IMG/VR virus record: IMGVR_UViG_2516143081_000005
DNA from: a virus
Taxonomy: Duplodnaviria > Heunggongvirae > Uroviricota > Caudoviricetes
Direction: 5' to 3' (one strand)
Length of the DNA stretch: 15,184 nt
The notes beneath the pieces are model-generated. The model made no database searches and had not been told where the DNA came from. It saw only the letters and a program-made list of their open reading frames with translations. This document shows positions 1-15,184 of this stretch, one piece after another (the first letter of the stretch is position 1; the number at the start of each line of letters is the position of its first letter). The position numbers and the translations under genes are program-made.

Positions 1-7
1 CATCCAA

Positions 8-40
8 CCGCAGCACGTTCTTGCTTAAGACGTGCTGCGG
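8..40 (-). terminator. Stem-loop just downstream of tfa on the minus strand; possible weak terminator
   Basis: ccgcagcacg (8-17) pairs with cgtgctgcgg (31-40), extended by tctt/aaga, giving a stem of about 14 bp with a 4-nt loop. The U-tract after it on the minus strand is weak and the window edge truncates context. Confidence 0.25.
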
Positions 41-54
41 CATAATCCCAATGA

Positions 55-639
55 TTACTCCCTGACAGGGTTCGTAGGCCACTCAATATCAGGTGCAGTT
101 GATGTATCAACACGGTTCAGCAACACCCGATACTTTTTCCAGGCTTCCAGCAATGAGGTTTCTTCCTCCGTTGCGATTTCCAGATCTACAGCATCCTGAA
201 GTGGCGCAATATGCTCACTGGCTACCTGCATCAGGCTGTTTTTTATTTCTTCCGCCTCTCGGATCCGGAACAGTTTTTCTGCTTCTGCATCTTTCACCCA
301 GGCTGTGCCGTTCCACTTCTGAAACTCCCCTTCCGGCGATAACCAGGTAACATTTTCCGGTAACGGACCGAGTTCAGAAATAAATAACTCGTCCCCTGAC
401 GCTACGTCATAAACCGTTTTACCCCGATGGTCTTCAACGAGATGCCACGATGCCTCATCACTGTTGAAAACAGCCACAAAGCCAGCAGGAATATCTGGTG
501 GTGCAATATCGGTACTGTTTGCTGGCAGACCTGTATGAGGCGGAATATATGCATCACCTTCACCAATAAATTCATTAGTTCCGGCCAGCAGATTATAAAT
601 TTTTATGGTCCGTGCTTGTTCACTCATTCTGAATGCCAT
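55..639 (-). CDS. tfa: Tail fibre assembly protein (lambda Tfa-like, 194 aa)
   Basis: ORF translation [34 protein letters not shown]... is near-identical over its full length to lambda Tfa as recalled. ATG at 639-637 overlaps the upstream stop (TAATG). Confidence 0.9.
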
Positions 640-824
640 TATGCAAGCCTCACAATATAGTTAAATGCGATGTTTTTGACGGTGTTTTCCGCGTTACCAG
701 CAGCGTTAACGGTGATGGTGTGTCCATGTGAGCCAATCGCAACGGAGTGCGTATGAGCACCAATACCGACAGTATGTGCGTGTGCACCTGCGCTTGCAGC
801 AGTGCCGGACAGTGAGTGGGTAAC
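639..824 (-). pseudogene. 3' remnant of a side tail fibre gene (about 60 C-terminal codons)
   Basis: Manual minus-strand translation gives ...[48 protein letters not shown], the conserved C-terminus of lambdoid side tail fibres. It runs straight on from the terminase-fragment stop at 825-827, with no start or N-terminal body. Confidence 0.6.
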
Positions 825-1913
825 TCAAGACCTGTTGCCCCCTGCGTATTGTCTGTCAGCGCGGTTATCCCCTTTCGTTTTCATCCAGTCTTTGACAATC
901 TGCACCCAGGTGGTGAACGGGCTGTACGCCGTCCAGATGTGAAAGGTCACGCTGTCCGGCGGCTCAATCTCTTCACCGGATGACGAAAACCAGAGAATGC
1001 CATCACGGGTCCAGATCCCGGTCTTTTCGCAGATATAACGGGCATCAGTGAAGTCCAGCTCCTGCTGGCGGATGACGCAGGCATTATGTTCGCAGAGATA
1101 AAACACGCTGGAGGGATCATCCGGCGTCCATTTGAGGCCAAACGGCGTCTCTTTATCGCCAAATTTAAGGTACTGCTCCTCCCCGCAGTGCGGGCAGGCA
1201 ACATGAAAACGCATAAAATGCGGGGATTCACTGGCTGCACGCTCAATCTGACAGGTGCCTCTCACTTTGGGCGTGGAGCCACGGATGGACTTTGGCCAGA
1301 CCGAGCCTTCAATACGTTTGTCACCCAGGAACGTCGGAGAGCCTTCCTGTTCAATATCCTCATCAAAGGCAGCAAGTTCATCATAACCCGCCACATCCAC
1401 CGACTTTTCACGGTAGTTTTTTGCCGCTTTACCGCCCAGGCACCAGAAACCACGCCCATTGGTGAAACGCTTCATGGTGAGCGTGTTATCCCGGTGCTTT
1501 TTGCCATACCACGGGGCCAGCGCCAGCAGCGACGGAATATCGCGGATGGTCGGCTCAACGTGGGTTTTCATAAAGTTCTCGGCATCACCATCCGTCGGCA
1601 ACCAGATAAGGGTGTTGCGCTGCTTATGCTCTATAAAGTAGGCATAAACACCCAGCAGCATTTTGGAATAACCGACACGGGCAGACTTCACCACATTCAC
1701 CTCACGGATGTAGTCGCTGCCCATCGCATTCATGATGGCCCGCTGAAAGGGCAGTGTTTCCCAGCGCCCTTCCTGGTATGCGGATTCTTTCGGGAGATAG
1801 TAATTGGCATCCGCCCATTCAACGGCGGTCTGTGGCTCCGGCCTGAACAGTGAGCGAAGCCCGGCGCGGACAAAATGCCGCAGCCTGTTAACCTGACTGT
1901 TCGATATATTCAC
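825..1913 (-). pseudogene. aaaD: Terminase large subunit (lambda gpA) N-terminal fragment, truncated at about residue 348
   Basis: Translation MNISNSQVNRLRHFVRAGLRSLFRPEPQTAVEWADANYYLPKES... matches lambda gpA from residue 1 to about KTKGD, then diverges (NRADRQYAGGNRS*). GTG start and 26-nt overlap with Nu1 as in lambda. The C-terminal nuclease/ATPase part (lambda gpA is about 641 aa) is absent. Confidence 0.85.
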
Positions 1914-2433
1914 TCAGCAACCCCGGTATCAGTTCATCCAGCGCGGCTGCTTTGTTCATGGCTTTGATGATATCCCGTTTCAGGAAATCAACATGTCGGT
2001 TTTCCAGTTCCGGAAAACGCCGCTGCACCGACAGGGGAATCCCGTCGAGAATACTGGCAATTTCACCTGCGATCCGCGACAACACGAAAGTACAGAATGC
2101 GGTTTCCACCACTTCAGCGGAGTCTCTGGCATTCTTCAGTTCCTGTGCGTCGGCCTGCGCACGCGTAAGTCGATGGCGTTCGTACTCAATAGTCCCTGGC
2201 TGGAGATCTGCCTCGCTGGCCTGCCGCAGTTCTTCAACCTCCCGGCGCAGCTTTTCGTTCTCAATTTCAGCATCCCTTTCGGCATACCATTTTATAACGG
2301 CGGCAGAGTCATAAAGCACCTCATTACCCTTGCCACCGCCTCGCAGAACGGGCATTCCCTGTTCCTGCCAGTTCTGAATGGTACGGATACTCGCACCGAA
2401 AATGTCAGCCAGCTGCTTTTTGTTGACTTCCAT
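1888..2433 (-). CDS. nohD: Terminase small subunit Nu1 homologue (181 aa), apparently intact
   Basis: Translation MEVNKKQLADIFGASIRTIQNWQEQGMPVLRGGGKGNEVLYDSAAVIKWYAERD... is essentially lambda Nu1 at full length (181 aa). ATG at 2433-2431. Confidence 0.9.
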   Translation of the reverse strand: MEVNKKQLADIFGASIRTIQNWQEQGMPVLRGGGKGNEVLYDSAAVIKWYAERDAEIENEKLRREVEELRQASEADLQPGTIEYERHRLTRAQADAQELKNARDSAEVVETAFCTFVLSRIAGEIASILDGIPLSVQRRFPELENRHVDFLKRDIIKAMNKAAALDELIPGLLSEYIEQSG

Positions 2434-2439
2434 TGCTCA

Positions 2440-2660
2440 TTCCACGGACAAAAACAGAGAAAGGAAACGACAGAGGCCAAAAAGCTCGCTTTCAGCACCT
2501 GTCGTTTCCTTTCTTTTCAGGGGGTATTTTAAATAAAAACATTAAGTTACGACGAAGAAGAACGGAAACACCTTAAACCGGAAAATTTTCATAAATAGCG
2601 AAAACCCGCGAGGTCGCCGCCCCGTAACCTGTCGGATCGCCGGAAAGGACCCGCAAAATG
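2440..2660 (-). other. cos packaging site (cosB - cosN - cosQ), lambda-type, apparently intact
   Basis: Reverse complement of 2434-2622 reads GGGCGGCGACCTCGCGGGTTTTCGCTATTTATGAAAATTTTCCGGTTTAAGG...GGAAACGACAGGTGCTGAAAGCGAG..., matching the lambda left end (cosB with Nu1/IHF sites) with a few substitutions. 2623-2700 matches the lambda right end (...GATCCGACAGGTTACG). Confidence 0.85.
2611..2622 (-). other. cosN: 12-nt cohesive-end sequence (GGGCGGCGACCT on the minus strand)
   Basis: Plus-strand AGGTCGCCGCCC at 2611-2622 is the reverse complement of the lambda cohesive end, flanked by CGTAACC (cosQ side). Confidence 0.8.
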
Positions 2661-2821
2661 ATAATAATTATCATCTACATGTCACAACGTGCATCTACGC
2701 CATCAAACCACGTCAAATAATCAATTATGACGCAGGTATCGTATTAATTGATCTGCATCAACTTAACGTAAAAACAACTTCAGACAATACAAATCAGCGA
2801 CACTGAATACGGGGCAACCTC

Positions 2822-3016
2822 ATGTCAACGAAGAACAGAACCCGCAGAACAACAACCCGCAACATCCGCTTTCCTAACCAAATGATTGAACAAATTAACA
2901 TCGCTCTTGAGCAAAAAGGGTCCGGGAATTTCTCAGCCTGGGTCATTGAAGCCTGCCGTCGGAGACTAACGTCAGAAAAGAGAGCATATACATCAATTAA
3001 AAGTGATGAAGAATGA
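2822..3016 (+). CDS. ylcI: Small basic protein (64 aa), YlcI-like; possibly ribbon-helix-helix DNA-binding
   Basis: ORF MSTKNRTRRTTTRNIRFPNQMIEQINIALEQKGSGNFSAWVIEACRRRL...: basic N-terminus, a short beta-strand-like RNIRFP then two helices, which resembles an RHH fold (inference). Size and position between cos and the ybcW-like gene fit ylcI of DLP12 (from memory). Confidence 0.55.
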   Translation: MSTKNRTRRTTTRNIRFPNQMIEQINIALEQKGSGNFSAWVIEACRRRLTSEKRAYTSIKSDEE

Positions 3017-3116
3017 ACATCCCGCGTTCTTCCCTCCGAACAGGACGATATTGTAAATTCACTTAATTACGAGGGCATTGCAGTAATTGAGTTGCAGTTT
3101 TACCACTTTCCTGACA

Positions 3117-3144
3117 GTGACAGACTGCGTGTTGGCTCTGTCAC
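3117..3144. terminator. Hairpin between convergent ylcI-like and ybcW-like genes; possible bidirectional terminator
   Basis: gtgacaga (3117-3124) pairs with tctgtcac (3137-3144) around a 12-nt loop. No strong U-tract on either side. Confidence 0.3.
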
Positions 3145-3180
3145 AGGCTAAATAGTTTGAATGATTAGCAGTTATGGTGA

Positions 3181-3387
3181 TCAGTCAACCACCAGGGAAT
3201 AATCCTTCATATTATTATCGTGCTTCACCAACGCTGCCTCAATTGCTCTGAATGCTTCCAGAGACACCTTATGTTCTATACATGCAATTACAACATCAGG
3301 GTAACTCATAGAAATGGTGCTATTAAGCATATTTTTTACACGAATCAGATCCACGGAGGGATCATCAGCAGATTGTTCTTTATTCAT
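3181..3387 (-). CDS. ybcW: Uncharacterised prophage protein (68 aa), YbcW-like
   Basis: ORF of 68 aa with ATG at 3387-3385 and GGAG about 9 nt upstream. Size and position match ybcW of DLP12 and the small ORF near the right end of lambda (from memory). Confidence 0.65.
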
Positions 3388-3672
3388 TTTGTCGCTCCAT
3401 GCGCTTGCTCTTCATCTAGCGGTTAAAATATTACTTCAAATCTTTCTGTATGAAGATTTGAGCACGTTGGCCTTACATACATCTGTCGGTTGTATTTCCC
3501 TCCAGAATGCCAGCAGGACCGCACTTTGTTACGCAACCAATACTATTAAGTGAAAACATTCCTAATATTTGACATAAATCATCAACAAAACACAAAGAGG
3601 TCAGACCAGATTGAAACGATAAAAACGATAATGCAAACTACGCGCCCTCGTATCACATGGAAGGTTTTACCA

Positions 3673-4083: not shown

Positions 4084-4373
4084 ATCATAACGTCCGGTTT
4101 CTTCCGTGTCAGCACCGGGGCGTTGGCATAATGCAATACGTGTACGCGCTAAACCCTGTGTGCATCGTTTTTAATTATTCCCGGACACTCCCGCAGAGAA
4201 GTTCCCCGTCAGGGCTGTGGACATAGTTAATCCGGGAATACAATGACGATTCATCGCACCTGACATACATTAATAAATATTAACAATATGAAATTTCAAC
4301 TCATTGTTTAGGGTTTGTTTAATTTTCTACACATACGATTCTGCGAACTTCAAAAAGCATCGGGAATAACACC

Positions 4374-4667
4374 ATGAAAAAAATGCTACTCGCTACTGCG
4401 CTGGCCCTGCTTATTACAGGATGTGCTCAACAGACGTTTACTGTTCAAAACAAACCGGCAGCAGTAGCACCAAAGGAAACCATCACTCATCATTTCTTCG
4501 TTTCTGGAATTGGGCAGAAGAAAACTGTCGATGCAGCCAAAATTTGTGGCGGCGCAGAAAATGTTGTTAAAACAGAAACCCAGCAAACATTCGTAAATGG
4601 ATTGCTCGGTTTTATTACTTTAGGCATTTATACTCCGCTGGAAGCGCGTGTGTATTGCTCACAATAA
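4374..4667 (+). CDS. borD: Bor lipoprotein (serum-resistance moron), 97 aa
   Basis: MKKMLLATALALLITGCAQQ... has a signal peptide with lipobox LITGC. The full sequence matches lambda Bor as recalled. Confidence 0.9.
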   Translation: MKKMLLATALALLITGCAQQTFTVQNKPAAVAPKETITHHFFVSGIGQKKTVDAAKICGGAENVVKTETQQTFVNGLLGFITLGIYTPLEARVYCSQ

Positions 4668-4673
4668 TTGCAT

Positions 4674-4699
4674 GAGTTGCCCATCGATATGGGCAACTC
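4674..4699. terminator. Perfect 10-bp stem-loop between convergent bor and Rz
   Basis: gagttgccca (4674-4683), loop tcgata, tgggcaactc (4690-4699). It overlaps the Rz stop codon. Confidence 0.4.
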
Positions 4700-5160
4700 T
4701 ATCTGCACTGCTCATTAATATACTTCTGGGTTCCTTCCAGTTGTTTTTGCATAGTGATCAGCCTCTCTCTGAGGGTGAAATAATCCCGTTCAGCGGTGTC
4801 TGCCAGTCGGGGGGAGGCTGCATTATCCACGCCGGAGGCGGTGGTGGCTTCACGCACTGACTGACAGACTGCTTTGATGTGCAACCGACGACGACCAGCG
4901 GCAACATCATCACGCAGAGCATCATTTTCAGCTTTCGCATCAGCTAACTCCTTCGTGTATTTTGCATCGAGCGCAGCAACATCACGCTGACGCATCTGCA
5001 TGTCAGTAATTGCCGCGTTCGCCAGCTTCAGTTCTCTGACATTTTTGTCGCGCTGGGCTTTGTAGGTAATGGCGTTATCACGGTAATGATTAACAGCCCA
5101 TGACAGGCAGACGATGATGCAGATAACCAGAGCGGAGATAATCGCGGTTACTCTGTTCAT
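4699..5160 (-). CDS. rzpD: i-spanin Rz (153 aa)
   Basis: [21 protein letters not shown]... has an N-terminal TM helix then a coiled-coil-like periplasmic domain. ATG at 5160-5158 overlaps the endolysin stop (ATGA). ORF is open from 5172. Confidence 0.85.
4758..4940 (-). CDS. rzoD: o-spanin Rz1 lipoprotein (60 aa), embedded in the +1 frame of Rz
   Basis: [22 protein letters not shown]... has a lipobox VVGC followed by a proline-rich stretch (PPPPPAW...PPPDW). Lies entirely inside Rz. Confidence 0.8.
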
Positions 5161-5654
5161 TGCTGACCCCACAAACAGATTTCACGCTCAATCTCACGAC
5201 GAGTCATGAGACCTTTCCATTGCTTACCGCCAGCATATGTCCAGCGACGTAGCTGATCACATGCGCCTTTGATATCGCCCTGGTTTATTTTGCGAAGAAG
5301 CGTCGATGTTCTGAAATTGCCAGCACCCACGTTGTAAACGAATGAGTAAAGAGCGCCGCGCGTTGTTTCCGGTATATCGACTTTGATGTACGGGTTAATT
5401 TGTCTGGCGACAGTGGCAAGGTCTTTATTCAAGAGTGCTTTGCATTCTGCTTTGGTATACGTTTTACCGAGCATGATGTCTTTTCCTGTATGCCCGTGAC
5501 ATACAGTCCATACACCAACAATATCTTTATATGGTATGTAGCTGACACCTTCCAGACCATCGTCACCACTCGGACCAGTGATGAGCACAGACGCTATGGC
5601 AACAGCCCCACCACCAATAGCAGCTGCTACAGCCTTGCGTAATGATGGCGACAT
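5157..5654 (-). CDS. rrrD: SAR endolysin (phage 21 R-type lysozyme, 165 aa)
   Basis: N-terminal Gly/Ala-rich signal-anchor-release segment ([20 protein letters not shown]), then a T4-lysozyme-like core with E/D/T catalytic residues ([17 protein letters not shown]). Confidence 0.9.
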
Positions 5655-5869
5655 TATTCACCTCTCGCAGCCTTACGCTTATCTTCTTTAATCTTGAAAT
5701 AAAGGTTTGTCAGGTACGTCAGCAGGCCAAATACCAGGCTACCCAGCACTCCAATTGCCGCCCACTGTGAGGGCGTGACTTTATCTAGCAGCTGTAAAAA
5801 CCAGTACCCGGCACTACCTGCTGAGGTGCCATAGGCGACACCCGTTGTTAACTTATCCATGGATTTCAT
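5654..5869 (-). CDS. essD: Class II holin (phage 21 S-type pinholin, 71 aa) with dual-start motif
   Basis: [30 protein letters not shown]... has two TM segments. ATG codons at 5869 and 5860 (M1-K2-S3-M4) give the holin/antiholin dual start. Confidence 0.9.
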
Positions 5870-5992
5870 AACCCCACCTCGCAGACAAAGCGGGTGTAAA
5901 TTGAGGGAATACTACGAAACGTAACAGACTCGGAGTCAGTGAATAACTCAGGTATTGGGTTATCAGCTAATATCGAGACTCAAAAAATGGAA

Positions 5993-6014
5993 AAACCCGC
6001 TCGACGGCGGGTTT
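5993..6014 (-). terminator. Rho-independent terminator on the minus strand upstream of the holin; candidate tR'
   Basis: Minus-strand reading AAACCCGCCGUCGAGCGGGUUU followed by UUCCAUUUUUUGAG. Stem 5993-6000 / 6007-6014 with loop 6001-6006. Lies about 125 nt upstream of the holin start. Confidence 0.5.
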
Positions 6015-6441
6015 AAGCTGTGTGACGAAGTAACCACTCTTAACAGCATAACCAATTTTTTACGTACGTAAACCACTAAATGATATTTGCGAGAATGCTA
6101 CCGAGTATTGAAAACACCACTACAAATACATAAGCAAATCTCAACAAATAACCAACAAATAATTTCCAGTGTTATTTTTAGCCGATTTAAATTGAACCTT
6201 CAAATTATAGAGCACTTATAAATAACAGCCGTTAATATAAATTGGCTAATAGATTTATTTTTATTCAGCCAAGAGCTATAAATAGGATTCGATAGAAAAA
6301 AGTTCAGATAAAAATAGAGATCTACTTCACAAATCAAACGAGAAACCAAAACTTACATCTTGAAATAATCACATTGATTAGATGAATATTTATCGCGCAG
6401 TGACATCATTTTTTAATAATAGTTCAAAAAAAGGGCTCACG

Positions 6442-7539
6442 ATGAAAAAATTAACAGTGGCAATTTCTGCTGTAGCTGCATCAGTACTGATGGCGATGTC
6501 TGCTCAGGCAGCTGAAATTTATAATAAAGACAGTAACAAGCTGGATCTGTACGGGAAAGTTAATGCTAAGCACTACTTCTCCTCTAATGATGCAGATGAT
6601 GGTGATACTACTTATGCCCGTCTTGGCTTCAAAGGTGAAACCCAAATCAACGATCAGCTGACTGGTTTCGGTCAGTGGGAATATGAATTCAAAGGCAACC
6701 GCGCTGAATCTCAAGGTTCCTCCAAAGACAAAACCCGTCTTGCATTTGCAGGCCTGAAATTCGGTGACTACGGCTCAATCGATTACGGCCGTAACTACGG
6801 TGTAGCATACGACATCGGTGCGTGGACTGACGTTCTGCCAGAATTCGGTGGCGATACCTGGACCCAAACAGATGTGTTCATGACTGGTCGTACCACTGGT
6901 GTTGCAACCTATCGTAACAACGACTTCTTTGGTCTGGTTGATGGTCTGAACTTTGCTGCTCAGTACCAAGGCAAAAACGATCGTAGCGATTTCGATAACT
7001 ACACTGAAGGTAACGGTGATGGCTTCGGTTTCTCTGCTACCTATGAATACGAAGGATTCGGTATCGGTGCAACTTATGCGAAATCTGATCGTACCGACAC
7101 TCAAGTTAATGCAGGGAAAGTTCTTCCTGAAGTATTTGCTTCCGGTAAAAATGCAGAAGTTTGGGCCGCAGGTCTGAAATATGACGCTAACAACATTTAC
7201 CTGGCCACTACCTATTCTGAAACCCAGAATATGACTGTATTTGCTGATCACTTCGTTGCTAATAAAGCTCAAAACTTCGAAGCTGTTGCACAATATCAGT
7301 TCGATTTCGGTCTGCGTCCGTCCGTTGCTTACCTGCAATCTAAAGGTAAGGATCTTGGAGTATGGGGCGATCAGGACTTAGTCAAATATGTTGATGTAGG
7401 TGCAACCTATTACTTCAACAAAAATATGTCTACTTTCGTTGATTACAAAATCAACCTGCTTGACAAAAATGACTTCACTAAAGCACTCGGTGTAAGCACT
7501 GATGACATCGTTGCTGTAGGTCTGGTTTACCAGTTCTAA
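6442..7539 (+). CDS. nmpC: Outer-membrane general porin (OmpC/OmpF/PhoE family, NmpC-like), 365 aa, apparently intact
   Basis: [23 protein letters not shown] | [16 protein letters not shown]... has a signal peptide with AQA cleavage site, the porin N-terminal signature and the C-terminal ...VGLVYQF beta-barrel motif. ATG at 6442 preferred over the ORF-track start at 6382. Confidence 0.9.
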
Positions 7540-7676
7540 TCTGATTACGAAAAAGATATGTTGCGGGAGGCTTTGCCTCCCCAACATATAAGTGGCTCCC
7601 TCAAGCCACTTCCTTTAGGAGCACAACCTTGCTTCTAACTATATAAACCTTCTGTTATATATTACCCTTTATTTTT

Positions 7677-7702
7677 GGGGGCGTTGCAACGCCCCATTTT
7701 TA
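7677..7702 (+). terminator. Rho-independent terminator downstream of the porin gene
   Basis: Palindrome ggggcgttgcaacgcccc (7677-7694) followed by ATTTTTAAT. The minus-strand version is followed by an A-rich tract, so it is plus-strand-specific. Confidence 0.5.
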
Positions 7703-7728
7703 ATAACTTTTAGTAAACAACTGGCATA

Positions 7729-8112
7729 TTAATTAGAGTTATTAACAACGATATCCATCTCTAACCGGATATCTAATGCCATTAACATCCCTTCAATTAT
7801 ACCCTCAGCCTTCTGTAACCTTTTCCCGATATAACCATCAGAGCAGCAATGCTTACCTGCCAGTGACATGAATGTCATACCGACTACATAATAATCTACT
7901 AATAAATCGTGCAAATCGCTGTTGTTCTTTTTCAGACGGGCCATGCACCCGCAAATGAGCATCGCGTCATCGTCACAACATTGCGGGCGAGATTTTACTT
8001 TTGAAGGAATTAATCCCTTAAAACCGGCGGCAATGGACGACCAGGTCACATCTTCATGATTATTAGCCGCCCACGCTCCCCAACGCTCAAGAACCATCTG
8101 AATATCACGCAT
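7729..8112 (-). CDS. quuD: Late-gene antiterminator Q (phage 21/82 type), 127 aa
   Basis: [24 protein letters not shown]... with Cys-rich motif ([12 protein letters not shown]...HCC). First ATG at 8112 with GGAG upstream; the ORF-track start at 8127 is a TTG. Confidence 0.85.
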
Positions 8113-8197
8113 CAACTTACTCCACAAAAATCAGACCAGAACGCCAATTACAAGCAAAAATCAACAAAACAGTATTAGTTGATTGTTATCTCTGACT

Positions 8198-8338
8198 TCA
8201 TACTCCTGCTCCTGTCAGGGTTTTGGCGTAATTCTTCAGTATTCGGTAATCGGTCAAAACAGAACCGGGGAAACGATATAAGCGCAGACGCCCCCAGCGG
8301 TGGCGAAGAAGTTCTGCCATATTAAACTCAAACATCAT
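8198..8338 (-). CDS. ylcG: Small protein (46 aa), YlcG-like; not in the ORF track
   Basis: Manual translation [46 protein letters not shown]. Start overlaps the rusA stop (ATGA); stop at 8198-8200. Confidence 0.6.
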
Positions 8339-8697
8339 TCATTCCCCATTTCGGTGATGGTCAGTTCCAGCCTCCCACCTTTGGTAACAGGCATCTTCAC
8401 AACGCGGTAATCAACGACCTGAGCATCATCCAGCCAGAAACCTGCTTTAGTGAGTGCGTCAAAAGCGGCTTTTTGCAGATTATCCAGGTCACGGCGACGG
8501 CGATCCGGCATGTGGCACTCAATGCGGATTTTCACAGGCATAGCCAGGCCGATATCCAGCATTGCGTTTTTAATGATTCGGGCGACGTTATCGCGGTATG
8601 CCTGCCCCTCTGCGCTGACGTGCGTGCGCCCGCGATTATGGCGGTAATAGCGATTATTGCTCGGAGGCCAGGGTAATGTGATGCTGTAGGTATTCAC
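8335..8697 (-). CDS. rusA: Holliday junction resolvase RusA (120 aa)
   Basis: [43 protein letters not shown]... is the RusA family signature at the correct length. Confidence 0.9.
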
Positions 8698-8984
8698 GCC
8701 TTAATAACCCCCTCTTTCAGCCAGATAACCTGTGTTCTCGCCATACCTTCCAGCGCGCATTCTTTTGCATATGCAGCATCGACAAAATGTGTGCGGCGGT
8801 CGATTTCGTCGTGGCAGGCAGAACATGCAATGGTGGCAATCAGGTCTGGCGATTTGGTACCGGTGCCGCACAATCCAGTCAGCCGGATATGTGCCAGTAC
8901 AGACGTTTCAGGGTTGCCATTACATACGCCAGGGATTCTTACCTGGCATTCCCGACTACGCGCTGCTTTTCTCAAATCAGCCAT
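8694..8984 (-). CDS. ybcO: YbcO-like nin-region protein (DUF1364, putative nuclease, 96 aa)
   Basis: [35 protein letters not shown]...CSACHDEID is Cys/His-rich. ATG at 8984 is preceded by AGGAGG. ORF is open from 9023. Confidence 0.8.
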
Positions 8985-9147
8985 GATTCCTCCTTGCTGC
9001 CAGTCGCAACCATTTTTTATCAACCAGGCTGGCGGTATATCCGAGCAGTGTTGGTATTTCGGAAGGCTTCAGCTCCGGTTTACGCTTACGACGATTTGGT
9101 ACTCTGTAGATGTGTCCGTTCATGACACGAATAAGCGGTGTAGCCAT
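8977..9147 (-). CDS. ninE: NinE-like small protein (56 aa); not in the ORF track
   Basis: Manual translation [56 protein letters not shown]. Start overlaps the ybcN stop (TAATG); 3' end overlaps the ybcO start by 8 nt. Assignment by size and nin-region position; I could not recall the lambda NinE sequence reliably to confirm. Confidence 0.65.
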   Translation of the reverse strand: MATPLIRVMNGHIYRVPNRRKRKPELKPSEIPTLLGYTASLVDKKWLRLAARRNHG

Positions 9148-9602
9148 TACGCCTCCTGTTTGTCGCGGAGCTGCTGGAACTCGCAGCTCTGCGGAATAGT
9201 CAGGTGGCAGCCAATATTCATCGCCCAGGCTTCAACCTTACACAGGAAGACATACATCTCTCCGGTATCAAGATCGGAGGTATGGCGTAACGACTGGATA
9301 GTGGTGATATCACCGGTTACGACATCAACCAGGTCTTTGGTTTCATAACCGAGATATGTGTGTTTGAGAGCATCTTTTACCCAAGCTGGAGTGGCGAACG
9401 TTTTACCCTTGCTGATGAGGTATTCACTGATTTCGCTGTACCACATGTGGCTGAGTGCATTCTGGGAAAGACTGCGTCTCTCGCGCCACGGTTTAAGCAC
9501 CATGCGAAAGCATTTGCCGTCCTCCAGATAAGGCTGGATCTGCCGACCGATAGCGGTGAAGTTACCGCGATGCAATTTGATACCATCTTGTGGGAGGTTC
9601 AC
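9147..9602 (-). CDS. ybcN: NinB-family protein YbcN (151 aa), GTG start
   Basis: (M)[29 protein letters not shown]... GTG start at 9602 with GGAGG upstream. Size and position match YbcN/NinB. Confidence 0.8.
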
Positions 9603-9700
9603 GCTTCACCTCCGCAGAGATCAAACGCTGGATGCAAAATATCGCAGGTGCATTTCTGCATCTGTGAATGGAGAAGAGAGGTTGGATTGTATGTGCGCAT
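9599..9700 (-). CDS. ylcH: Small protein (33 aa), YlcH-like; not in the ORF track
   Basis: Manual translation [33 protein letters not shown]. Stop overlaps the ybcN GTG start (GTGA). Assignment by size and position from memory. Confidence 0.45.
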
Positions 9701-9796
9701 AAACGTCCCCGTTTAGCGCAGAAGTCACCGGAGTTGTTCAGGCTCCAATGGCATGATTATGGCTGGTTGATTATTGGAAATCAAATGTGCTGAAAA

Positions 9797-10306
9797 TTAG
9801 TCTGCCAAGTCTTCCTCAGTCGCAACTGGGTAATTCCAAATATCAAAAAAAGCTATAGCCTCCTGCCATTTGCTCCATAAGTTATCAAGTACTTGTGTAG
9901 GTTCCGTACTTTTAAAAACAGAATCAGCCGCATCACCGTTATGAACTTCCTCGTACAGTTCCATTATTAGCAGATTAACAAAGTACTGTTTCAACATTAA
10001 TGCCTGATTACCTTCTTTCTGCTGGCTATCCTGCTTGATGATCTCCATCGCCCGTACTAGGCACCTGATGATATCCGCTGCATCATTAACGCTCCATTCA
10101 GATCCGCGCTTATCTTTAGCTGATGAATTGGCTCTCTCAGCGCAAGCCTTTAAAGACTCATAAAGGTAAACTCTATTTTGTAGCTGCAGCGCTTTTTTTG
10201 ACGTGTACCAACTTGCAAGCGCCGACCCCGCTGCGGCTAATGTGCCAAACGCAGAAATACCTGCTGCTATTGCACTTAAGTCGGCACTGTCAAAGTTCCA
10301 CATCAT
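9797..10306 (-). CDS. Hypothetical protein (169 aa) with one N-terminal transmembrane helix and an acidic helical C-terminal domain
   Basis: MMWNFDSADLSAIAAGISAFGTLAAAGSALASWYTSKK... has a hydrophobic stretch around residues 10-33. ATG ATG start with AAGGTG Shine-Dalgarno 5 nt upstream. Own upstream region after a terminator. I recognise no family. Confidence 0.6.
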   Translation of the reverse strand: MMWNFDSADLSAIAAGISAFGTLAAAGSALASWYTSKKALQLQNRVYLYESLKACAERANSSAKDKRGSEWSVNDAADIIRCLVRAMEIIKQDSQQKEGNQALMLKQYFVNLLIMELYEEVHNGDAADSVFKSTEPTQVLDNLWSKWQEAIAFFDIWNYPVATEEDLAD

Positions 10307-10488
10307 CGTTACACCTTATATAAATACCCCTCAGTAATATCCAATAAGGTATGTGCACAATCAATATAATTTTATCCGTATCGGCACATAGCGATTTGAA
10401 CGCTACTGGTAATGGTATATTTTAGATTATATCGTCCAGTTTACAGCACCCGTATTTTATGAAATGGACTCGCATATTACCCAAAAAA

Positions 10489-10521
10489 TGCCAGCACTTC
10501 CGTCATCGTAGAATGCTGGCA
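10489..10521 (-). terminator. Rho-independent terminator on the minus strand downstream of the 107-aa gene
   Basis: tgccagca (10489-10496) pairs with tgctggca (10514-10521), with inner ttc/gaa pairing. On the minus strand it is followed by UUUUUUGG (reverse complement of 10481-10488). Confidence 0.5.
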
Positions 10522-10540
10522 GTATTTCTAACTAGTGACT

Positions 10541-10864
10541 TTATTGGAACAGATTCTGACGGAAATATGGTAACACTCGACTCCACTTATCATCCAGCCA
10601 CGGCTGGAATTTTACATGTGCCGTTTCTCTGGCGAGGATTGCTCGCGCTCTGTTGAGTATCTGGGGATATTCTTGCTCGATAGAAGTAAAGCGGCCGGCT
10701 TCGCGGTGCTCCGCAACCTGAAGTAGTGGAGTAACGTTCTGGCAGGCAGTTAACATCACATCACCTGCTCGCCATAACCAAGCACGTGCACAAAGTTTGT
10801 TATCAGTGAATTGTTTTGTGATTGGGTATTGTTGAACTGCTAGAACGAGAACGCCAGCATCCAT
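10541..10864 (-). CDS. Hypothetical protein (107 aa), no recognisable family
   Basis: ORF with ATG at 10864 and AGGGA about 7 nt upstream. It sits between the serine recombinase and the 169-aa membrane protein and is followed by its own terminator. Codon usage looks ordinary; no homology recognised. Confidence 0.5.
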   Translation of the reverse strand: MDAGVLVLAVQQYPITKQFTDNKLCARAWLWRAGDVMLTACQNVTPLLQVAEHREAGRFTSIEQEYPQILNRARAILARETAHVKFQPWLDDKWSRVLPYFRQNLFQ

Positions 10865-10975
10865 TGGCAGTCCCTATAGTAAAACCATAGCTCAGGACGC
10901 TTCGTTCAGGATAGATAATTTTATTGTACTTACCTAACTTTCTTACTATAGCACGGTTGAAAAAGTGATTATTAC

Positions 10976-12502
10976 TCAAAAATAAACCTCACCATCAACC
11001 ATATATTTGAGAGTACTTATCGCCTGCTGGGCGGATATTGTTTTCATTAAAGGATAGTGTTTAAAAACAATGCCATTCATAAAATAGATATCACAGGTTT
11101 TATTATCTGTATTGATTATGATTTTTTCGAATGTTTTATAGGCAAGTGTACGACATAGCTCTCGCCCATTTTTACTGGTTAAGTCAATAGCATGAAAATC
11201 ACCAAGTGAACTCACCGCTTTACTCTTCAAAGTTTTTAATGATACAGAAGCCCTTCGTAATTCCTTATCTAATACTCTGATTTTTTCTGCTATAGCGGTA
11301 ACTTCAGGCGCAACAGATAATGCAGCAATTAAATTATTAATTTTCATCTGGAGCTCAATAATTTTCAACTCTAAAGTTTCATTAGCATCTTTCTTGTTTT
11401 CAACTGGTTGGATTTTACTACAATTAAAAAGCAACTCATTAATGATATTATAATCAACCAAATCTCTCTTTATTGATGGCCTGTCACATCGATGCAGTCT
11501 TCTCATCGGACAAACATAATAGCCATGCAAACTTCCAGATACCGCATGAACAATCATGGTATTACCACAAGCCTCGCACTTCATAACTGTTCGAAGTAGA
11601 TTTATCAACATAGGATTTTTGCTACTATTGCTAATACCAAAAGGTGCCAACCGAATTTCCTGCACAGCGTAAAACAAATCATCTGATATGACTCTGGGAT
11701 AATAGCCAGCGATTTCACTTATTCCTTTACCTCTTGCACGATATGAAGGTACGCATATACCTATCAGAGCTTTATTCGCTAATAATTTTTCAATTACAGA
11801 AGGTCCCCATGCACTTTCTTTTCCTGAGAAATTCTTTACAGCATGATCATTTAAATACTTGGCTATTGCATTCAATGAGCGCCTTTCCATCCTGAGTTTA
11901 AAAATTAGCTCAATAGTTTTCACCCTGTCGGGGTCTGGAACAAAAGCCGTTCTTTTGTCATCCAATGAGAGCCATCTCGGACAAGACGCCGTCATAATCG
12001 TGCCTGACTCCAGTGCATCCTGCCGTTTTTTCTTCCATGATAATTTAACCCGACTTGACTTTATCTCGCTTTCTTCATTTGCCCTTTGTGCTATAAGTAT
12101 GGCTTTTATTAATGAATATGGCTCATTCAATGAGTCAATATTATAGACTGTATTATCGCAAAGAGTTATAACATCAATACCGTGATTCAAAATCAATTTC
12201 AGACGCTCAATCGCTTCACCGACTTTTTCTCTTGAAAGTCTGTCCAGACTTTCAACTAACAATGTAGTCCCTGGCAATATATAACCATGTTCTATAGCAT
12301 CTAAAAATTCCGAAAAAGCTCCTGATTGTGCATGCTTTCCATTGAATGCGCTTAACCCCAAATCTTCATACGTTACGGTATCAAGGTAATAATCACTATT
12401 TACCTTTAGCCATTCAGTAATAAGCCTTCTCTGGCGGTTTAATGAATCACCAGACATCTGACCTGGTGATGAAAATCGCATATATGCTATGGCTTTTTTC
12501 AT
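10976..12502 (-). CDS. ybcK: Large serine recombinase (resolvase/invertase catalytic domain plus recombinase domain and zinc-ribbon), 508 aa
   Basis: N-terminus MKKAIAYMRFSSPGQMSGDSLNRQRR has the serine-recombinase catalytic motif (Y-x-R-x-S-S...Q). C-terminal region has a Cys cluster (CEACGNT...YYVCPMRRLHRCDRP) typical of the zinc ribbon of large serine recombinases. Length matches YbcK. Confidence 0.9.
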   Translation of the reverse strand: MKKAIAYMRFSSPGQMSGDSLNRQRRLITEWLKVNSDYYLDTVTYEDLGLSAFNGKHAQSGAFSEFLDAIEHGYILPGTTLLVESLDRLSREKVGEAIERLKLILNHGIDVITLCDNTVYNIDSLNEPYSLIKAILIAQRANEESEIKSSRVKLSWKKKRQDALESGTIMTASCPRWLSLDDKRTAFVPDPDRVKTIELIFKLRMERRSLNAIAKYLNDHAVKNFSGKESAWGPSVIEKLLANKALIGICVPSYRARGKGISEIAGYYPRVISDDLFYAVQEIRLAPFGISNSSKNPMLINLLRTVMKCEACGNTMIVHAVSGSLHGYYVCPMRRLHRCDRPSIKRDLVDYNIINELLFNCSKIQPVENKKDANETLELKIIELQMKINNLIAALSVAPEVTAIAEKIRVLDKELRRASVSLKTLKSKAVSSLGDFHAIDLTSKNGRELCRTLAYKTFEKIIINTDNKTCDIYFMNGIVFKHYPLMKTISAQQAISTLKYMVDGEVYF

Positions 12503-12757
12503 GGTGACACCTGCTAAAGTATGCTTTTATAAACCTTAGTGGTGAGATATGATTTTTGTTTAATTTTTATTTAAAAAGACAATTAAGGTCACATTATCTT
12601 GAATATACAACAATAATCGTATTGCAATTTTCTTACACCATAATCTTGAAAGCACAAAAGAATGAATAAAAACTAAAGACATTAACAAAAAGCATAAAAC
12701 GAGGCCCATATAAATATACGAGCCTCCATATTTTAGTCGTTTAAAAACAAATTATTT

Positions 12758-13090
12758 TTAATGTGGTGTGCTTCGTGACAATAAATTAATAACCAACACA
12801 CCGGCACAAATCAACATCATGCCTATAATGGCTGGCAGGTCCAACCGTTGGCCGAAAAATCCCCATGATAGTAAGCTAATCAGGACAATACCGACTCCTG
12901 ACCAGATAGCATAAGCAATCCCTGTAGGAATATAAGCCAGCGTCTGAGCTAATAACCAGAATGATGCACAATAACAAATAATTGTACCAACAGATGGCCA
13001 TAACCGTGTAAAACCTTCTGAAAACTTCATTAAGGTTGTACCAATGACCTCTGCAAGTATTGCACCACCAAGATAAATATAAGGATTCAT
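12758..13090 (-). CDS. emrE: Small multidrug resistance (SMR) efflux transporter EmrE (110 aa)
   Basis: MNPYIYLGGAILAEVIGTTLMKFSEGFTRLWPSVGTIICYCASFWLLAQTLAYIPTGIAYAIWSGVGIVLISLLSW... is the EmrE sequence with four TM helices. ATG at 13090; ORF is open from 13144. Confidence 0.9.
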   Translation of the reverse strand: MNPYIYLGGAILAEVIGTTLMKFSEGFTRLWPSVGTIICYCASFWLLAQTLAYIPTGIAYAIWSGVGIVLISLLSWGFFGQRLDLPAIIGMMLICAGVLVINLLSRSTPH

Positions 13091-13157
13091 AGCATATTCT
13101 TTCCTGTTCAAACTGGAGAGAATTGTACTACAGTTTGAACTCAACTCACCTGTTTCA

Positions 13158-13460
13158 TCATTGTGTACCCATTGATGTTCTTTTATATACCCTCAATACC
13201 CGTTTCATCGCGGCACTCTGGCGACACTCCTTAAAAATCAAATTCGTGCTCACCTTTCCTTCCCATTCTTCTCTGGTAGCGAACCGATAATACACCGTTC
13301 GCCAGACCTTACCATCAACGACCAGGATTCCTGCCCGCGCCATTTTAGCCGCAGCCTGATTTATGCTGGTTACCGTTGCGCCTGTTACCGCGGCAACGTC
13401 CTGCGCACAGAATTTCTTATGAGTCCCCAGGTAATGAATAATTGCCTCTTTGCCCGTCAT
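13158..13460 (-). CDS. ren: Ren-like protein (100 aa)
   Basis: MTGKEAIIHYLGTHKKFCAQDVAAVTGATVTSINQAAAKMARAGILVVDGKVWRTVYYRFATREE... is near-identical to lambda Ren. Start overlaps the P stop (ATGA) as in lambda. Confidence 0.85.
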   Translation of the reverse strand: MTGKEAIIHYLGTHKKFCAQDVAAVTGATVTSINQAAAKMARAGILVVDGKVWRTVYYRFATREEWEGKVSTNLIFKECRQSAAMKRVLRVYKRTSMGTQ

Positions 13461-14050
13461 ACCCTTGCTCCTTTCAGCCCAAACTTAGCTTTGATTTCTG
13501 CGATCTTCGCCAGAGCCTGTGCACGATTTAGAGGTCTACCGCCCATGACAGGAAGTTGTTTTACTGGTTCAGGTATAGCCTCACCACGGTTAATTCGTGC
13601 GGTCATACAGGACAGTTCATCGGCAGCCTTGCGCCGTAATTCCGCGTCAGTCAACGCATTGGCCCGCATGTTCTGATACAGGTTGGTAACCAGCCAGTAG
13701 TGCGCGTTTGATTTCCACGGATAAGACTCTGCATCCGGATACAGCCCGCGCTTCCGGCAATACTCGTAAACCATATCAACCAGCTCGCTGGCGTTTGGCA
13801 GCCCGGCGGTAACGGATGCTTCTTCCCGGCACCAGGCGACAAACTGCCCGGGTGATGGCAGGAATGGTCGATTCTGCCGACGGGCTACGCGCATTCCAGC
13901 GTTAACCTGTTCCATTGTGGTGATCCCGTTTTCCCGAAAAGCCAGCACCCACTGGCGGCGGATTTCGTTCAGTTCATTCTGGTCACGGTTAGCCAGGCTC
14001 GCCGGGAAAGTTGCCAGTAACTGGCTGAACACACCGTTGATGATCTGCGC
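13457..14050 (-). pseudogene. peaD: Replication protein P (helicase loader) C-terminal fragment, lacking about the first 36 residues
   Basis: From ...[26 protein letters not shown]... to the C-terminus the translation matches lambda P. The first 28 residues of the ORF ([28 protein letters not shown]) are unrelated and are encoded antisense to the integrase 5' end. Confidence 0.8.
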
Positions 14051-14128
14051 TATGCCTCGTATTCGCTCCCGGGCGGGAAACGAATTAAGGAATCTCTTGG
14101 CACAAAGGACAAGCGGCAAGCTCAGGAG

Positions 14129-15184
14129 TTGCACGACAAGCGAAAAGCAGAACTCTGGCGAGTAGAAAAGCTAGGGGATTTACCTGATGTCACTTTTGAA
14201 GAGGCCTGCCTAAGATGGCTTGAGGAAAAAGCTGATAAAAAATCTCTCGATTCAGATAAAAGCCGGATTGAGTTCTGGCTTGAACATTTTGAGGGTATAA
14301 GGCTTAAAGATATCTCGGAGGCAAAGATTTACTCTGCTGTAAGCAGAATGCATAACAGAAAGACGAAAGAAATATGGAAACAGAAAGTTCAGGCCGCCAT
14401 CAGGAAAGGTAAAGAACTGCCTGTTTATGAACCAAAGCCAGTATCAACTCAGACAAAGGCAAAGCATCTTGCCATGATAAAGGCCATTCTCCGTGCTGCA
14501 GAACGCGACTGGAAGTGGCTGGAAAAAGCGCCTGTCATCAAGATACCAGCGGTCAGAAACAAGCGAGTCAGATGGCTGGAAAAGGAGGAAGCAAAACGCC
14601 TTATTGATGAGTGCCCCGAACCACTGAAATCTGTCGTCAAGTTTGCGCTGGCAACTGGTCTGAGAAAGTCGAACATCATAAATCTGGAATGGCAACAAAT
14701 CGACATGCAGCGACGAGTTGCCTGGGTGAATCCAGAAGAGAGCAAATCAAACCGCGCCATTGGTGTGGCGCTAAACGATACCGCCTGTAAAGTGTTGCGT
14801 GATCAAATAGGCAAGCATCACAAATGGGTGTTTGTACATACCAAGGCGGCTAAGCGAGCAGATGGAACATCAACGCCTGCGGTCAGGAAGATGCGCATCG
14901 ACAGCAAGACATCATGGCTATCAGCTTGTCGTCGTGCAGGAATTGAAGATTTCCGTTTCCATGACCTCAGACACACCTGGGCAAGCTGGCTGATTCAGTC
15001 AGGCGTCCCATTATCAGTGCTTCAGGAAATGGGCGGATGGGAGTCCATAGAAATGGTTCGTAGGTATGCTCACCTTGCGCCTAATCATTTGACAGAGCAT
15101 GCGAGGAAAATAGACGACATTTTTGGTGATAATGTCCCAAATATGTCCCACTCTGGAATTATGGAGGATATAAAGAAGGCGTAA
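14129..15184 (+). CDS. intD: Tyrosine integrase (P22/DLP12 IntD-type), 5'-truncated; probably a pseudogene or expressed from a non-ATG start
   Basis: C-terminal catalytic region ...[41 protein letters not shown]... carries the R..H-x-x-R...Y signature. In-frame homology extends upstream to about 14051 ([23 protein letters not shown]). There is no in-frame ATG or GTG between the stop at 14018-14020 and the TTG at 14129. Stop at 15182-15184. Confidence 0.8.

Follow-up and report, generated by a model that had tools for sequence, protein, structure and literature searches.

A probable illegitimate deletion joins truncated P and intD genes in a DLP12-type cryptic prophage of Escherichia coli

Results

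The window (the whole 15,184-nucleotide stretch of DNA analysed here) can be recognised from its sequence as the 15 kb nearest the integrase in a lambdoid cryptic prophage of the DLP12 type, located beside the tRNA gene argU in Escherichia coli. Gene calls and Pfam searches on co-linear contigs and window ORFs, together with co-linearity with annotated relatives, gave the gene order of DLP12: ren, emrE, ylcJ, ybcK, ybcN, ninE, ybcO, rusA, quuD, porin, lysis genes, bor and nohD. The integrase is of the intD type, and in relatives a tRNA-Arg gene follows int after 16 nt, as expected for insertion at argU. The window itself ends at the int stop codon; contigs with an identical junction run on into fimZ-sfm-folD-cysS, and many E. 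coli chromosomes match their fimZ-side flank at 100% identity. Other lesions in the element include a truncated terminase and the loss of head and tail genes.

Table 1. Features at and around the P-intD junction, in window coordinates.
Feature	Position	Strand	Evidence
P', 3' part of lambdoid gene P, residues 37-233 and stop	13457..14050	-	PF06992, phmmer, amino acid identity
Junction TA, microhomology	14051..14052	.	Alignment ends, parental sequences
intD', DLP12-type tyrosine integrase, codon 11 to stop (15182-15184)	14053..15184	+	Nucleotide identity, PF00589
int codon 11, TAT	14051-14053	+	Sequence comparison
Open antisense-of-int stretch extending the P' frame to GTG 14134	14053..14134	-	ORF list, translation
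Antisense-of-P stretch in the int frame: TAA, then ten codons from CTG 14021	14018..14050	+	Translation
ren-like gene directly downstream of P'	13158..13460	-	'protein ren' in co-linear relatives

By BLAST against five relatives and by direct sequence comparison, the minus strand is homologous to P up to position 14052 and the plus strand to IntD from 14051 onward, with the same two points recurring in each of the five alignments (contigs L001, L003, L004, L005 and L014). The only sequence common to both parents at the junction is the dinucleotide TA, the P parent reading ...GATGATCTGCGC-TA-CCTGCTG across the join and the int parent ...GAAATATGG-TA-TGCCTCG. The join is a 2-nt overlap with no inserted or filler bases, the structure of a microhomology-type illegitimate deletion. 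It leaves two start-less gene remnants, P' and int', head to head and transcribed outward in opposite directions. The junction is made up of P and int sequence only, with no IS end, target duplication or att core at the join, and 15-mers of the argU/att region had zero occurrences in the window. An earlier sequence-only reading had put the breakpoint at about 14050/14051; the base-level alignment it proposed places it at 14050/14053. Neither a full-length int start upstream nor intervening xis or immunity sequence, the two things that reading thought it might have overlooked, was found at the junction.

Residues 37-233 of P' are 100% identical in amino acid sequence to the intact P of E. coli 88-3493. 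Codon 36 was changed to ATA at the junction, and P is not full length, codons 1-36 and the ribosome binding site being deleted. The conserved P domain is present: PF06992 (Phage_lambda_P) matches P' over its whole profile (1-162 of 162, E = 7.9e-62), and phmmer matched P' to lambda P, the helicase loader 8v9t, with E = 4e-129 and true identity from residue 37. At the nucleotide level P' is 93% identical to lambda P and the proteins are nearly identical from residue 37, but compared with lambda P (PDB 8v9t, 6bbm) the window copy is truncated N-terminally and lacks start signals. As the sequence-only reading had noticed and ORF translation confirmed, the P fragment is preceded by 28 unrelated codons: a minus-strand ORF of 225 aa (13457-14134, GTG start) consists of 27 codons antisense to int, hybrid codon 28 (ATA, 14051-14053) and then P residues 37-233. 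Upstream of GTG 14134 there is no Shine-Dalgarno pairing (+1.3 kcal/mol), and the sequence of the 28 added codons suggests a mere open frame, with no sign of translation. Window positions 13100-14052 are 99.9% identical to positions 10001-10953 of the 88-3493 contig (L014), and the P side appears otherwise undisturbed, as the ren-like neighbour is intact.

On the other side, int begins at its nt 31, codon Y11. Nucleotides 1-30, encoding residues 1-10 (MSLFRRNEIW), are missing along with the ATG, the GAGGAAAG Shine-Dalgarno sequence and everything upstream, so that the window holds no complete integrase N-terminus, start or ribosome binding site; the loss of about 10 N-terminal codons and the ATG claimed earlier proved to be exactly codons 1-10. 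Over int nt 31-1164, int' is 99.7-99.9% identical to intD of five E. coli strains, and its residues 11-387 differ from the integrase of phage Turner by one amino acid (P133L). PF00589 matches int' with E = 5.1e-47, and its catalytic domain is intact. In the intact 88-3493 reference, the HDLRHTWAS...RYAH motifs align to HP1 integrase and XerC-like structures, and the window integrase is identical to the reference across these motif residues. The IntD protein is 73-74% identical to the SfII and Salmonella-phage integrases; set against P22/SfII-type integrases, the window copy is again truncated at its N-terminus and without start signals. In lambda Int the N-terminal domain is the arm-binding domain. 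Since matches of the integrase N-terminal domain in a PDB sequence search hit the catalytic domain only, an arm-binding role for IntD residues 1-60 stays an analogy.

Upstream, the int frame is closed by TAA 14018-14020, the coordinate at which the feature in the sequence-only reading had begun, and the in-frame stretch between this codon and int' contains no ATG, GTG or TTG. From CTG 14021 onward the frame is open for 387 codons, exactly the native IntD length, and one GenBank gene call (GCA_029845805.1, contig L006 8951-10114, mapping to window 14021-15184) consequently shows the apparent pseudogene as a full-length, CTG-start integrase of 387 aa. In other assemblies with the junction the gene call is 278 aa, from ATG 14348.

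Between 13000 and 15184 on both strands, zero promoter-like sites were found against 2.4 expected, and in neither remnant is a usable Shine-Dalgarno sequence placed before a canonical in-frame start. At TTG 14129 the spacing to AGGAG is zero, ATG 14348 has a Shine-Dalgarno score of -2.3 kcal/mol, and the near-cognate ATT 14327 has GGAGG 4-5 nt upstream; from these sequences, near-cognate start use at CTG 14021 or ATT 14327 is possible. Because promoter, Shine-Dalgarno sequence and start codon are all missing, both P' and int' are most likely silent pseudogenes, and the overlapping ORFs across the scar (the 225-aa "P" and the 387-aa "integrase") look like accidents of open frames. The remnants are otherwise undamaged, with a single amino acid difference in int' and none in P', which fits a recent deletion event. 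The same lack of damage could, however, also reflect purifying selection acting on one of the two, and silence sits less easily with the retention of the whole conserved Pfam P domain in P' and with the treatment of the chimeric frame as an integrase by one gene call.

Relative to E. coli 88-3493 the window lacks 8,808 bp, comprising 17 annotated features together with the first 36 codons of P and the first 10 of int. The two flanks match, at 99.7-99.9% identity, sequences separated by 8,808 bp in 88-3493 and by 6,902 bp in A16; window positions 4317-14052 and 14051-15184 are co-linear with the 88-3493 contig at 98.5% and 99.7% identity, and the P-ren part is 99.9% identical. In the missing stretch, the closest intact relatives carry a partial HTH (xis-like) gene, DUF4222, TraR/DksA, DUF1382, DUF1317, exo, bet, gam, hypotheticals, an XRE/S24 repressor, a cro-like HTH gene, YdaT, an O-like replication protein and the N-terminal part of P. 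The sequence-only reading was right that nothing of the early region is left between int and P; its list of lost genes was too lambda-centric, the closest intact relatives being annotated differently and without an N gene in this stretch. The same integrase as in the window occurs in 88-3493, A16, AJ1 and the free phage Turner (PP925837), the proteins of 88-3493 and Turner being 100% identical, and the P-ren-emrE-ybcK block is likewise shared with the fuller prophages and Turner (99.9% identical in 88-3493). All four nevertheless have full-length int and P and an early region of 6.9-8.8 kb that is absent from the window. Isolate AJ1 has a chromosomal flank 100% identical to that of contig L006, yet retains the full int-to-P region.

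The exact 225-aa ORF was found on at least 11 independent contigs, and the identical junction in one gut metagenome, two assemblies from NCBI and several from Logan that stem from separate runs; both NCBI assemblies and one of those from Logan carry it inside single alignments of 99.97% identity. It was present in 0 of 5,426 complete E. coli genomes. With at least 11 independent contigs set against this absence, the junction is real, heritable and rare. An assembly chimera or misjoin, considered solely because the junction is absent from complete genomes, is ruled out by its identity in separate NCBI, Logan and gut-metagenome assemblies, within long co-linear contigs. The exact 44-mer across the junction had no match in a one-genome-per-species collection, a result of little weight since E. 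coli has a single representative there.

DLP12 of K-12 shares the insertion site of the window (argU/fimZ side), an integrase 99.7% identical in nucleotide sequence and the same neighbours from ren to the lysis genes in the order given above. Comparison with it, as the sequence-only reading had suggested, showed that in K-12, too, the early region separating int from P is gone and what remains of P lacks its start, though the scar is a different one. Its record annotates intD, a partial exonuclease, a partial P and ren; unlike the window it keeps an intact intD with 95 bp upstream and a piece of exo, and its scars join P nt 10669 to exo 17968 and 18273 to 19635 (88-3493 coordinates). The window, in turn, lacks exo and has a truncated int; its P fragment is about 280 nt longer.

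Further scars in E. coli prophages (types LD27-1, SCZE5/SW071614, EC06, FDN-24, AR_0085 and F11) are, like that of the window, same-locus deletions from P to the leftward operon or int, with 2-6 nt overlaps wherever the join could be mapped (2 nt in the window). In EC06 int is truncated too, by 53 codons. Their endpoints all differ, and none equals that of the window. Seven other distinct E. coli prophage junctions have their P-side end at 10962-10966 of the 88-3493 contig, a 5-nt interval in codons 32-33. Their partners are the cro-like gene, bet, exo codon 10, a point 136 bp upstream of int, int codon 54, a methyltransferase gene and the start of the xis-like gene (with a 40-nt templated patch), and all partner sequences start with TA. 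In the window the break falls 9 nt from this cluster, at the TA of the other copy of CAGGTA. In an unbiased sample, all four other junction types that keep P to codon 37 or beyond end within 4 nt of one another.

Several searches were directed at this site. A 24-mer of the P hotspot had 25 matches in the one-genome-per-species collection and gave no new junctions: 23 of the 25 continue as lambda, apparently lambda contaminating unrelated assemblies, one is cut off where its contig ends and the last is an intact allele from E. albertii. When IMG/VR was scanned for the reciprocal product, with the O side retained and P' lost, only SNP variants of intact P came up; a scan for further junctions made at the TA used in the window gave a SNP variant only. 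A hairpin or cruciform was rejected, since the DNA fold is no better than that of shuffles (z = +1.6), as was an IS200/IS605-TnpB origin suggested by TTGAT 20 nt from the hotspot, because IMG/VR contained no insertion following TTGAT. Selection favouring fusions in frame with the antisense reading of P was dismissed because 2 of 7 junctions are in frame, about chance when judged by eye. A literature search on mapped lambda replication start sites gave nothing usable. We gave no weight to a type IIS site, ACCTGC (4/8), which would presumably cut at exactly 10962/10966, to the 9-mer ACCTGCGGC, which we take to be common to the lambda hotspot allele and the argU att region, or to primase CTG start sites, CRISPR self-targeting and the nearby YbcK, presumably a large serine recombinase, as assumed causes of a hotspot.

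Discussion

As a whole, the locus is best explained, with a probability of roughly 85%, by an illegitimate P-intD deletion in a DLP12-type prophage that left silent remnants. Illegitimate recombination would have joined P (inside codon 36) to intD (codon 11) through the two-base TA overlap, most simply as a single event in a more complete prophage resembling that of 88-3493. About 8.8 kb would thereby have been removed, with the whole immunity region, the O-like initiator and origin, the recombination genes and the xis-like gene; the same deletion would also have taken the int promoter region, the int ribosome binding site and both gene starts.

The P-side end lies 9-13 nt from the recurrent breakpoint of DLP12 variants, and for this reason a secondary deletion or a site-directed process is possible. 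In place of a single 8.8-kb event, a secondary deletion of about 175 bp might have acted on an older scar of the SCZE5/SW071614 type, in which P codon 33 abuts sequence 136 bp upstream of intact int. This variant retains both window endpoints, in seven complete genomes the P'-int distance is just 173 nt greater than in the window, and K-12 and FDN-24 resemble secondary deletions from the LD27-1 type, their P' allele being 100% identical to that of this type. We nevertheless think two steps unlikely: P-ren of the window is 96.1-96.3% identical to those variants against 99.9% to the intact prophage, a random secondary deletion would rarely take only 10 nt from the P side, and the other three secondary-looking scars removed 199-520 nt. 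Somewhat less doubtful, though still tentative, is a recurrent site-specific break, arrest or priming at CAGGTA-CAG-CAGGTA (P codons 32-36), in which the P end would be preserved and the other end lost to a variable extent. This reading concerns mechanism only and is compatible with the single deletion favoured above. The shared P-side end of the seven junctions, the TA at the start of every partner and at the window break, and the tight ends of the four P-retaining types argue for it; against it, no enzyme, IS element, hairpin or known site is tied to the position, some junctions possibly descended from each other, two types came from pattern scans aimed at this site, and the window's own end is outside the 5-nt cluster. 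If so, the scar might be the product of an undescribed hotspot at lambdoid P codons 32-36, where P' and everything from ren onward are kept to within a few bases and DNA on the origin/immunity side may be lost variably or patched by template switching. One-sided nested deletions would follow from a defined break, arrest or priming site, for example the place where rightward leading-strand synthesis would begin once the origin of a non-excisable prophage fires.

Two further readings deny that the remnants are debris. A truncated or chimeric, partly active integrase might still be made from CTG 14021, TTG 14129, ATT 14327 or ATG 14348, given a frame open throughout 14021-15184, a catalytic domain one amino acid from a functional phage integrase, the GGAGG before ATT 14327 and the gene calls in assemblies. 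The lack of any promoter-like site, with the native upstream region deleted, of a canonical start with a properly spaced Shine-Dalgarno sequence and of xis makes this highly improbable, and in any product the N-terminal domain, arm-binding by analogy with lambda Int, would be missing its first 10 residues or more. Scarcely more probable is the retention of P' for a useful DnaB-binding part, for example one interfering with incoming lambdoid phages. The complete domain, its identity to the intact allele and the keeping of exactly this portion by many independent scars would suit such a role, but promoter, Shine-Dalgarno sequence and start codon are all missing and far more of P was lost in K-12, FDN-24 and F11. 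Moreover, an in-frame deletion joining P codon 9 to codon 86 abolishes the known P activities, replication initiation and P lethality (PMC3640518).

Under the deletion reading, the prophage may reasonably be regarded as locked in and non-inducible through the deletion, although the element has the other lesions named above, and we infer that the element can neither be induced nor replicate. DLP12 of K-12, with intact IntD, excises at <1e-5, i.e. below 1 per 100,000 cells, and the Qin prophage, with an inactive integrase, shows no excision (PMC3105296); De Paepe et al. (PMC3945230) give no data bearing on the window junction. Such residual IntD-dependent excision should be lost here, because int is without a translation start and its first N-terminal residues and xis is absent.

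The scar is ordinary prophage decay and, since K-12 DLP12 bears its own, different deletion at this position, a new allele arising from a familiar process. The known decay deletions of the most widespread E. coli cryptic prophage thereby gain a rare allele mapped to the base, which would also allow a natural test of the dependence of residual DLP12 excision on IntD. If a systematic census confirms it, the clustering of independent scars at P codons 32-33 would indicate that prophage grounding is set off by a specific molecular event, and such a hotspot, if true, would be a general route to the grounding of lambdoid prophages.

Structure of the P-integrase junction

BLAST comparison of window positions 13400-15184 with five related loci divided the query, in every case, into two abutting pieces: minus-strand P ending at 14052 and plus-strand intD beginning at 14051. 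The parental P sequence, read antisense, is ...GATGATCTGCGC TA CCTGCTGTAC..., the parental integrase sequence is ...GAAATATGG TA TGCCTCGTATTCG... and the window junction is ...GATGATCTGCGC TA TGCCTCG...; the join is therefore exact, lacks filler, and has TA (14051-14052) as the only bases common to both parents. The sequence-only reading, which had proposed a deletion fusing a P remnant to a start-less integrase, is thus confirmed as an observation and supported in its structure, and the alignment that it had suggested for placing the breakpoint fixes the join to the base. The interval it had assigned to the junction, 14018-14134, is the overlap of two accidental ORF extensions, since GTG 14134 and TAA 14018-14020 bound it. 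How the ends were joined and what the scar does to the element we infer below.

P residues 37-233 are kept in the window, and codon 36 has changed from GTA to ATA. The remnant protein (P′) shows 100% identity to its intact counterpart in E. coli 88-3493 and is almost the same as lambda P. Its frame runs on antisense to int as far as the GTG, giving a 225-aa ORF in which, as had been noticed, 28 non-P codons precede the P residues. The Pfam P domain begins at residue 38, so that the site of clustered P-side ends described below is also a domain boundary. The first integrase codon kept is TAT (Y11); MSLFRRNEIW, the ATG, the GAGGAAAG ribosome-binding site and all upstream sequence are lost, in agreement with the predicted absence of about ten N-terminal codons and the start. 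These ten residues presumably belong to an arm-binding domain, by analogy to lambda Int. A PDB sequence search with the integrase gave matches confined to the catalytic domain. The remnant (int′) differs by one amino acid from the integrase of phage Turner, and its frame stays open upstream through ten antisense-P codons to the TAA. From CTG this chimeric frame has 387 codons, coincidentally the exact native IntD length, and is called as a 387-aa integrase in GCA_029845805.1, an annotation pitfall; other assemblies call a 278-aa integrase from the first ATG.

Prophage context and missing region

On the minus strand the window carries a co-linear run of lambdoid genes, in order P′, ren, emrE, ylcJ, ybcK (a large serine recombinase), a P22AR-C gene, ybcN, ninE, ybcO, rusA, ylcG and quuD; these are followed by a porin gene (plus strand), essD/rrrD/rzpD (minus strand), bor (plus strand) and, again on the minus strand, ybcV, ybcW, ylcI, nohD, a shortened terminase gene and a tail-fibre assembly gene. 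The integrase lies on the plus strand, its stop codon at the final base of the window. This order is that of the DLP12 cryptic prophage. In contigs with identical sequence, fimZ, sfm fimbrial genes, folD and cysS lie beyond the integrase; many E. coli chromosomes match this flank at 100% identity, and relatives have a tRNA-Arg 16 nt after the integrase. Because the ATPase-only terminase adjoins the tail-fibre assembly gene, a second large deletion, with loss of head and tail genes, is indicated. The cargo block of emrE (SMR efflux), ylcJ and ybcK (508 aa), between ren and the nin-region genes, is found in fuller prophages too.

The prophage that E. coli 88-3493 has at this site is fuller, and it is 99.9% (P-ren) and 99.7% (integrase) identical to the window. 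Taking 8,808 bp out of it gives the window, which bears out the claimed loss of the early region between int and P. The missing stretch has 17 annotated features, namely genes for an O-like replication protein, a YdaT-domain protein, a cro-like HTH protein and an XRE-type repressor, five hypothetical genes, gam, bet, exo, DUF1317, DUF1382, TraR/DksA and DUF4222 genes, and a partial xis-like HTH gene. Also absent are P codons 1-36, the int upstream region and int codons 1-10. Measured against strain A16, 6,902 bp are missing. Isolate AJ1 has a complete int-to-P region and a chromosomal flank 100% identical to that of the GCA_029845805.1 contig bearing the window junction. The free phage Turner shares its integrase with 88-3493 (IntD) at 100% identity and has a small ORF immediately before the gene, from which it follows that the intact module is part of a living phage.

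An identical 225-aa fusion ORF was found on 11 contigs, which represent one human-gut metagenome, two assemblies at NCBI and several Logan assemblies, each built from its own sequencing run; three of these contigs align through the junction as a single block at 99.96-99.97% identity to the window. A search of 5,426 complete E. coli genomes did not find the junction in any; a 241-nt junction probe was covered in only seven of them, as two pieces about 175 nt further apart. The window allele is real and heritable, but rare.

Coordinates of features in the window and of scars at the int-P locus (a::b, the two joined positions in the 88-3493 prophage, L014, with the P-side end first for P scars)
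Feature	Window	Strand	88-3493 prophage	Remarks
Tail-fibre assembly gene	55-639	minus
Match to K-12-type DLP12	1-865			no counterpart in A16 prophage
Terminase large-subunit ORF	825-1913	minus		ATPase domain only
emrE-ylcJ-ybcK block	10976-13144	minus
Chimeric int frame, CTG start	14021-15184	plus		L006 (GCA_029845805.1) 8951-10114
P cluster region	14041-14052 (P codons 36-39)		10952-10966	L001 3652-3664; L003 2622-2633; L015 2152-2166; L017 2149-2161; L043 2490-2543; L047; L049
int TTG	14129	plus
int ATT	14327	plus
int ATG	14348	plus
Missing stretch			10954-19761
Window scar			10953::19760
K-12			10669::17968; 18273::19635
LD27-1			10964::17592	exo codon 10; also K-12's second deletion
SCZE5, SW071614			10963::19594
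EC06 (L015)			10966::19890	int codons 1-53 absent
FDN-24			10765::19651
AR_0085			10964	joined to methyltransferase fragment
F11			10443, patch, 19529	54-nt patch (L044 2450-2503) copied from 18812-18865
bet type			10962::17375	in frame with bet; seven complete genomes
cro type			10962-10966::12692	in cro-like gene; one complete genome
O157:H7 TR01 (NZ_CP033605.1)			10963-11002	40-nt replacement; L043 2501-2543
L049 (IMG/VR UViG_2579778952_000008)			19657 to 20124	internal int deletion besides P::bet scar

Related scars and clustering of P-side ends

Similar scars abound at the int-P locus; that of the window adds to the series, and this kind of event is already known. Since the EC06 and L049 variants also damage the integrase, the IntD N-terminus has been lost more than once. 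The F11 patch, lying between P and sequence upstream of int, is a further case of templated insertion at the join of a prophage deletion.

Seven different deletion or patch junctions in E. coli lambdoid prophages have P-side ends no more than 5 nt apart, at L014 10962-10966 (P codons 32-33). Some of these types may derive from one another, scans aimed at this site contributed two of them, and the window's own P end falls just outside the 5-nt cluster. Four of the seven (LD27-1, SCZE5/SW071614, EC06 and AR_0085) end at 10963-10966. The partners of the seven range from the cro-like gene to int codon 54 and all begin with TA. The cluster site is the TA of the V33 GTA codon, and the window break is the TA of the V36 GTA codon, 9 nt off in the other CAGGTA copy of a CAGGTA-CAG-CAGGTA quasi-repeat. 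In an unbiased sample, with full coverage for any junction keeping P to at least codon 37 and int within ~1.4 kb, the P ends of the four other types with such coverage all lay within 4 nt of each other. The P′ side was always the one kept, and no reciprocal product was seen in the small collection searched. The site was not tied to any structure, IS element or known enzyme. A deletion hotspot in P is possible, and is the only part of this work that might merit more. The TR01 patch (P codons about 20-33) reproduces, without a mismatch and in the same orientation, exactly 40 nt from the beginning of the xis-like gene that lies upstream of int at a distance of 8.5 kb, and it looks like a double template switch; it creates a TGA stop, and P there is also split by IS1203. 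Separately, exact lambda P sequence occurred in 23 assemblies of unrelated taxa among GTDB representative genomes (within L018-L042), including Shewanella, Pseudomonas, Streptomyces and Bacillus relatives, several on ~48.5-kb low-coverage contigs, which looks like phage lambda DNA contamination.

Origin and consequences of the deletion

The junction carries no IS element, att sequence or filler, only the 2-nt overlap, a signature that argues for illegitimate, microhomology-type joining. The scar would have arisen from an 88-3493-like ancestor in one such deletion step, the most economical route because the alleles match 88-3493 on both sides. A two-step route through a scar of the SCZE5/SW071614 type, in which P codon 33 is joined 136 bp upstream of int, seems unlikely, its P allele being only 96% identical to that of the window.

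A consensus scan of both strands of 13000-15184 found no sigma-70-like sites, against 2.4 expected. The first canonical in-frame int start is a TTG that AGGAG abuts with zero spacing, and the first ATG has no Shine-Dalgarno pairing (-2.3 kcal/mol); the CTG, like an ATT that has GGAGG 4-5 nt upstream, is no more than a near-cognate possibility. The P′ GTG has no Shine-Dalgarno pairing at all (+1.3 kcal/mol), and the antisense-int stretch contains a Shine-Dalgarno-like GGGAG/CGAGG after which come only ATA and ATC codons. These promoter and start-signal results are best read as indicating that int′ and P′ are both probably silent pseudogenes. As both are otherwise undamaged (one amino-acid change in int′, none in P′), a recent deletion would be the simplest explanation; either may instead have a function.

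Without a repressor, early promoters, an initiator and origin, and full-length P, the element is, we infer, incapable of induction or replication. An in-frame deletion joining P codon 9 to codon 86 abolishes both initiation and P toxicity (PMC3640518). K-12 DLP12, with intact IntD, still excises, in fewer than 1 per 100,000 cells, and Qin, with an inactive integrase, does not excise (PMC3105296); the window allele would be expected to behave like Qin in excision.
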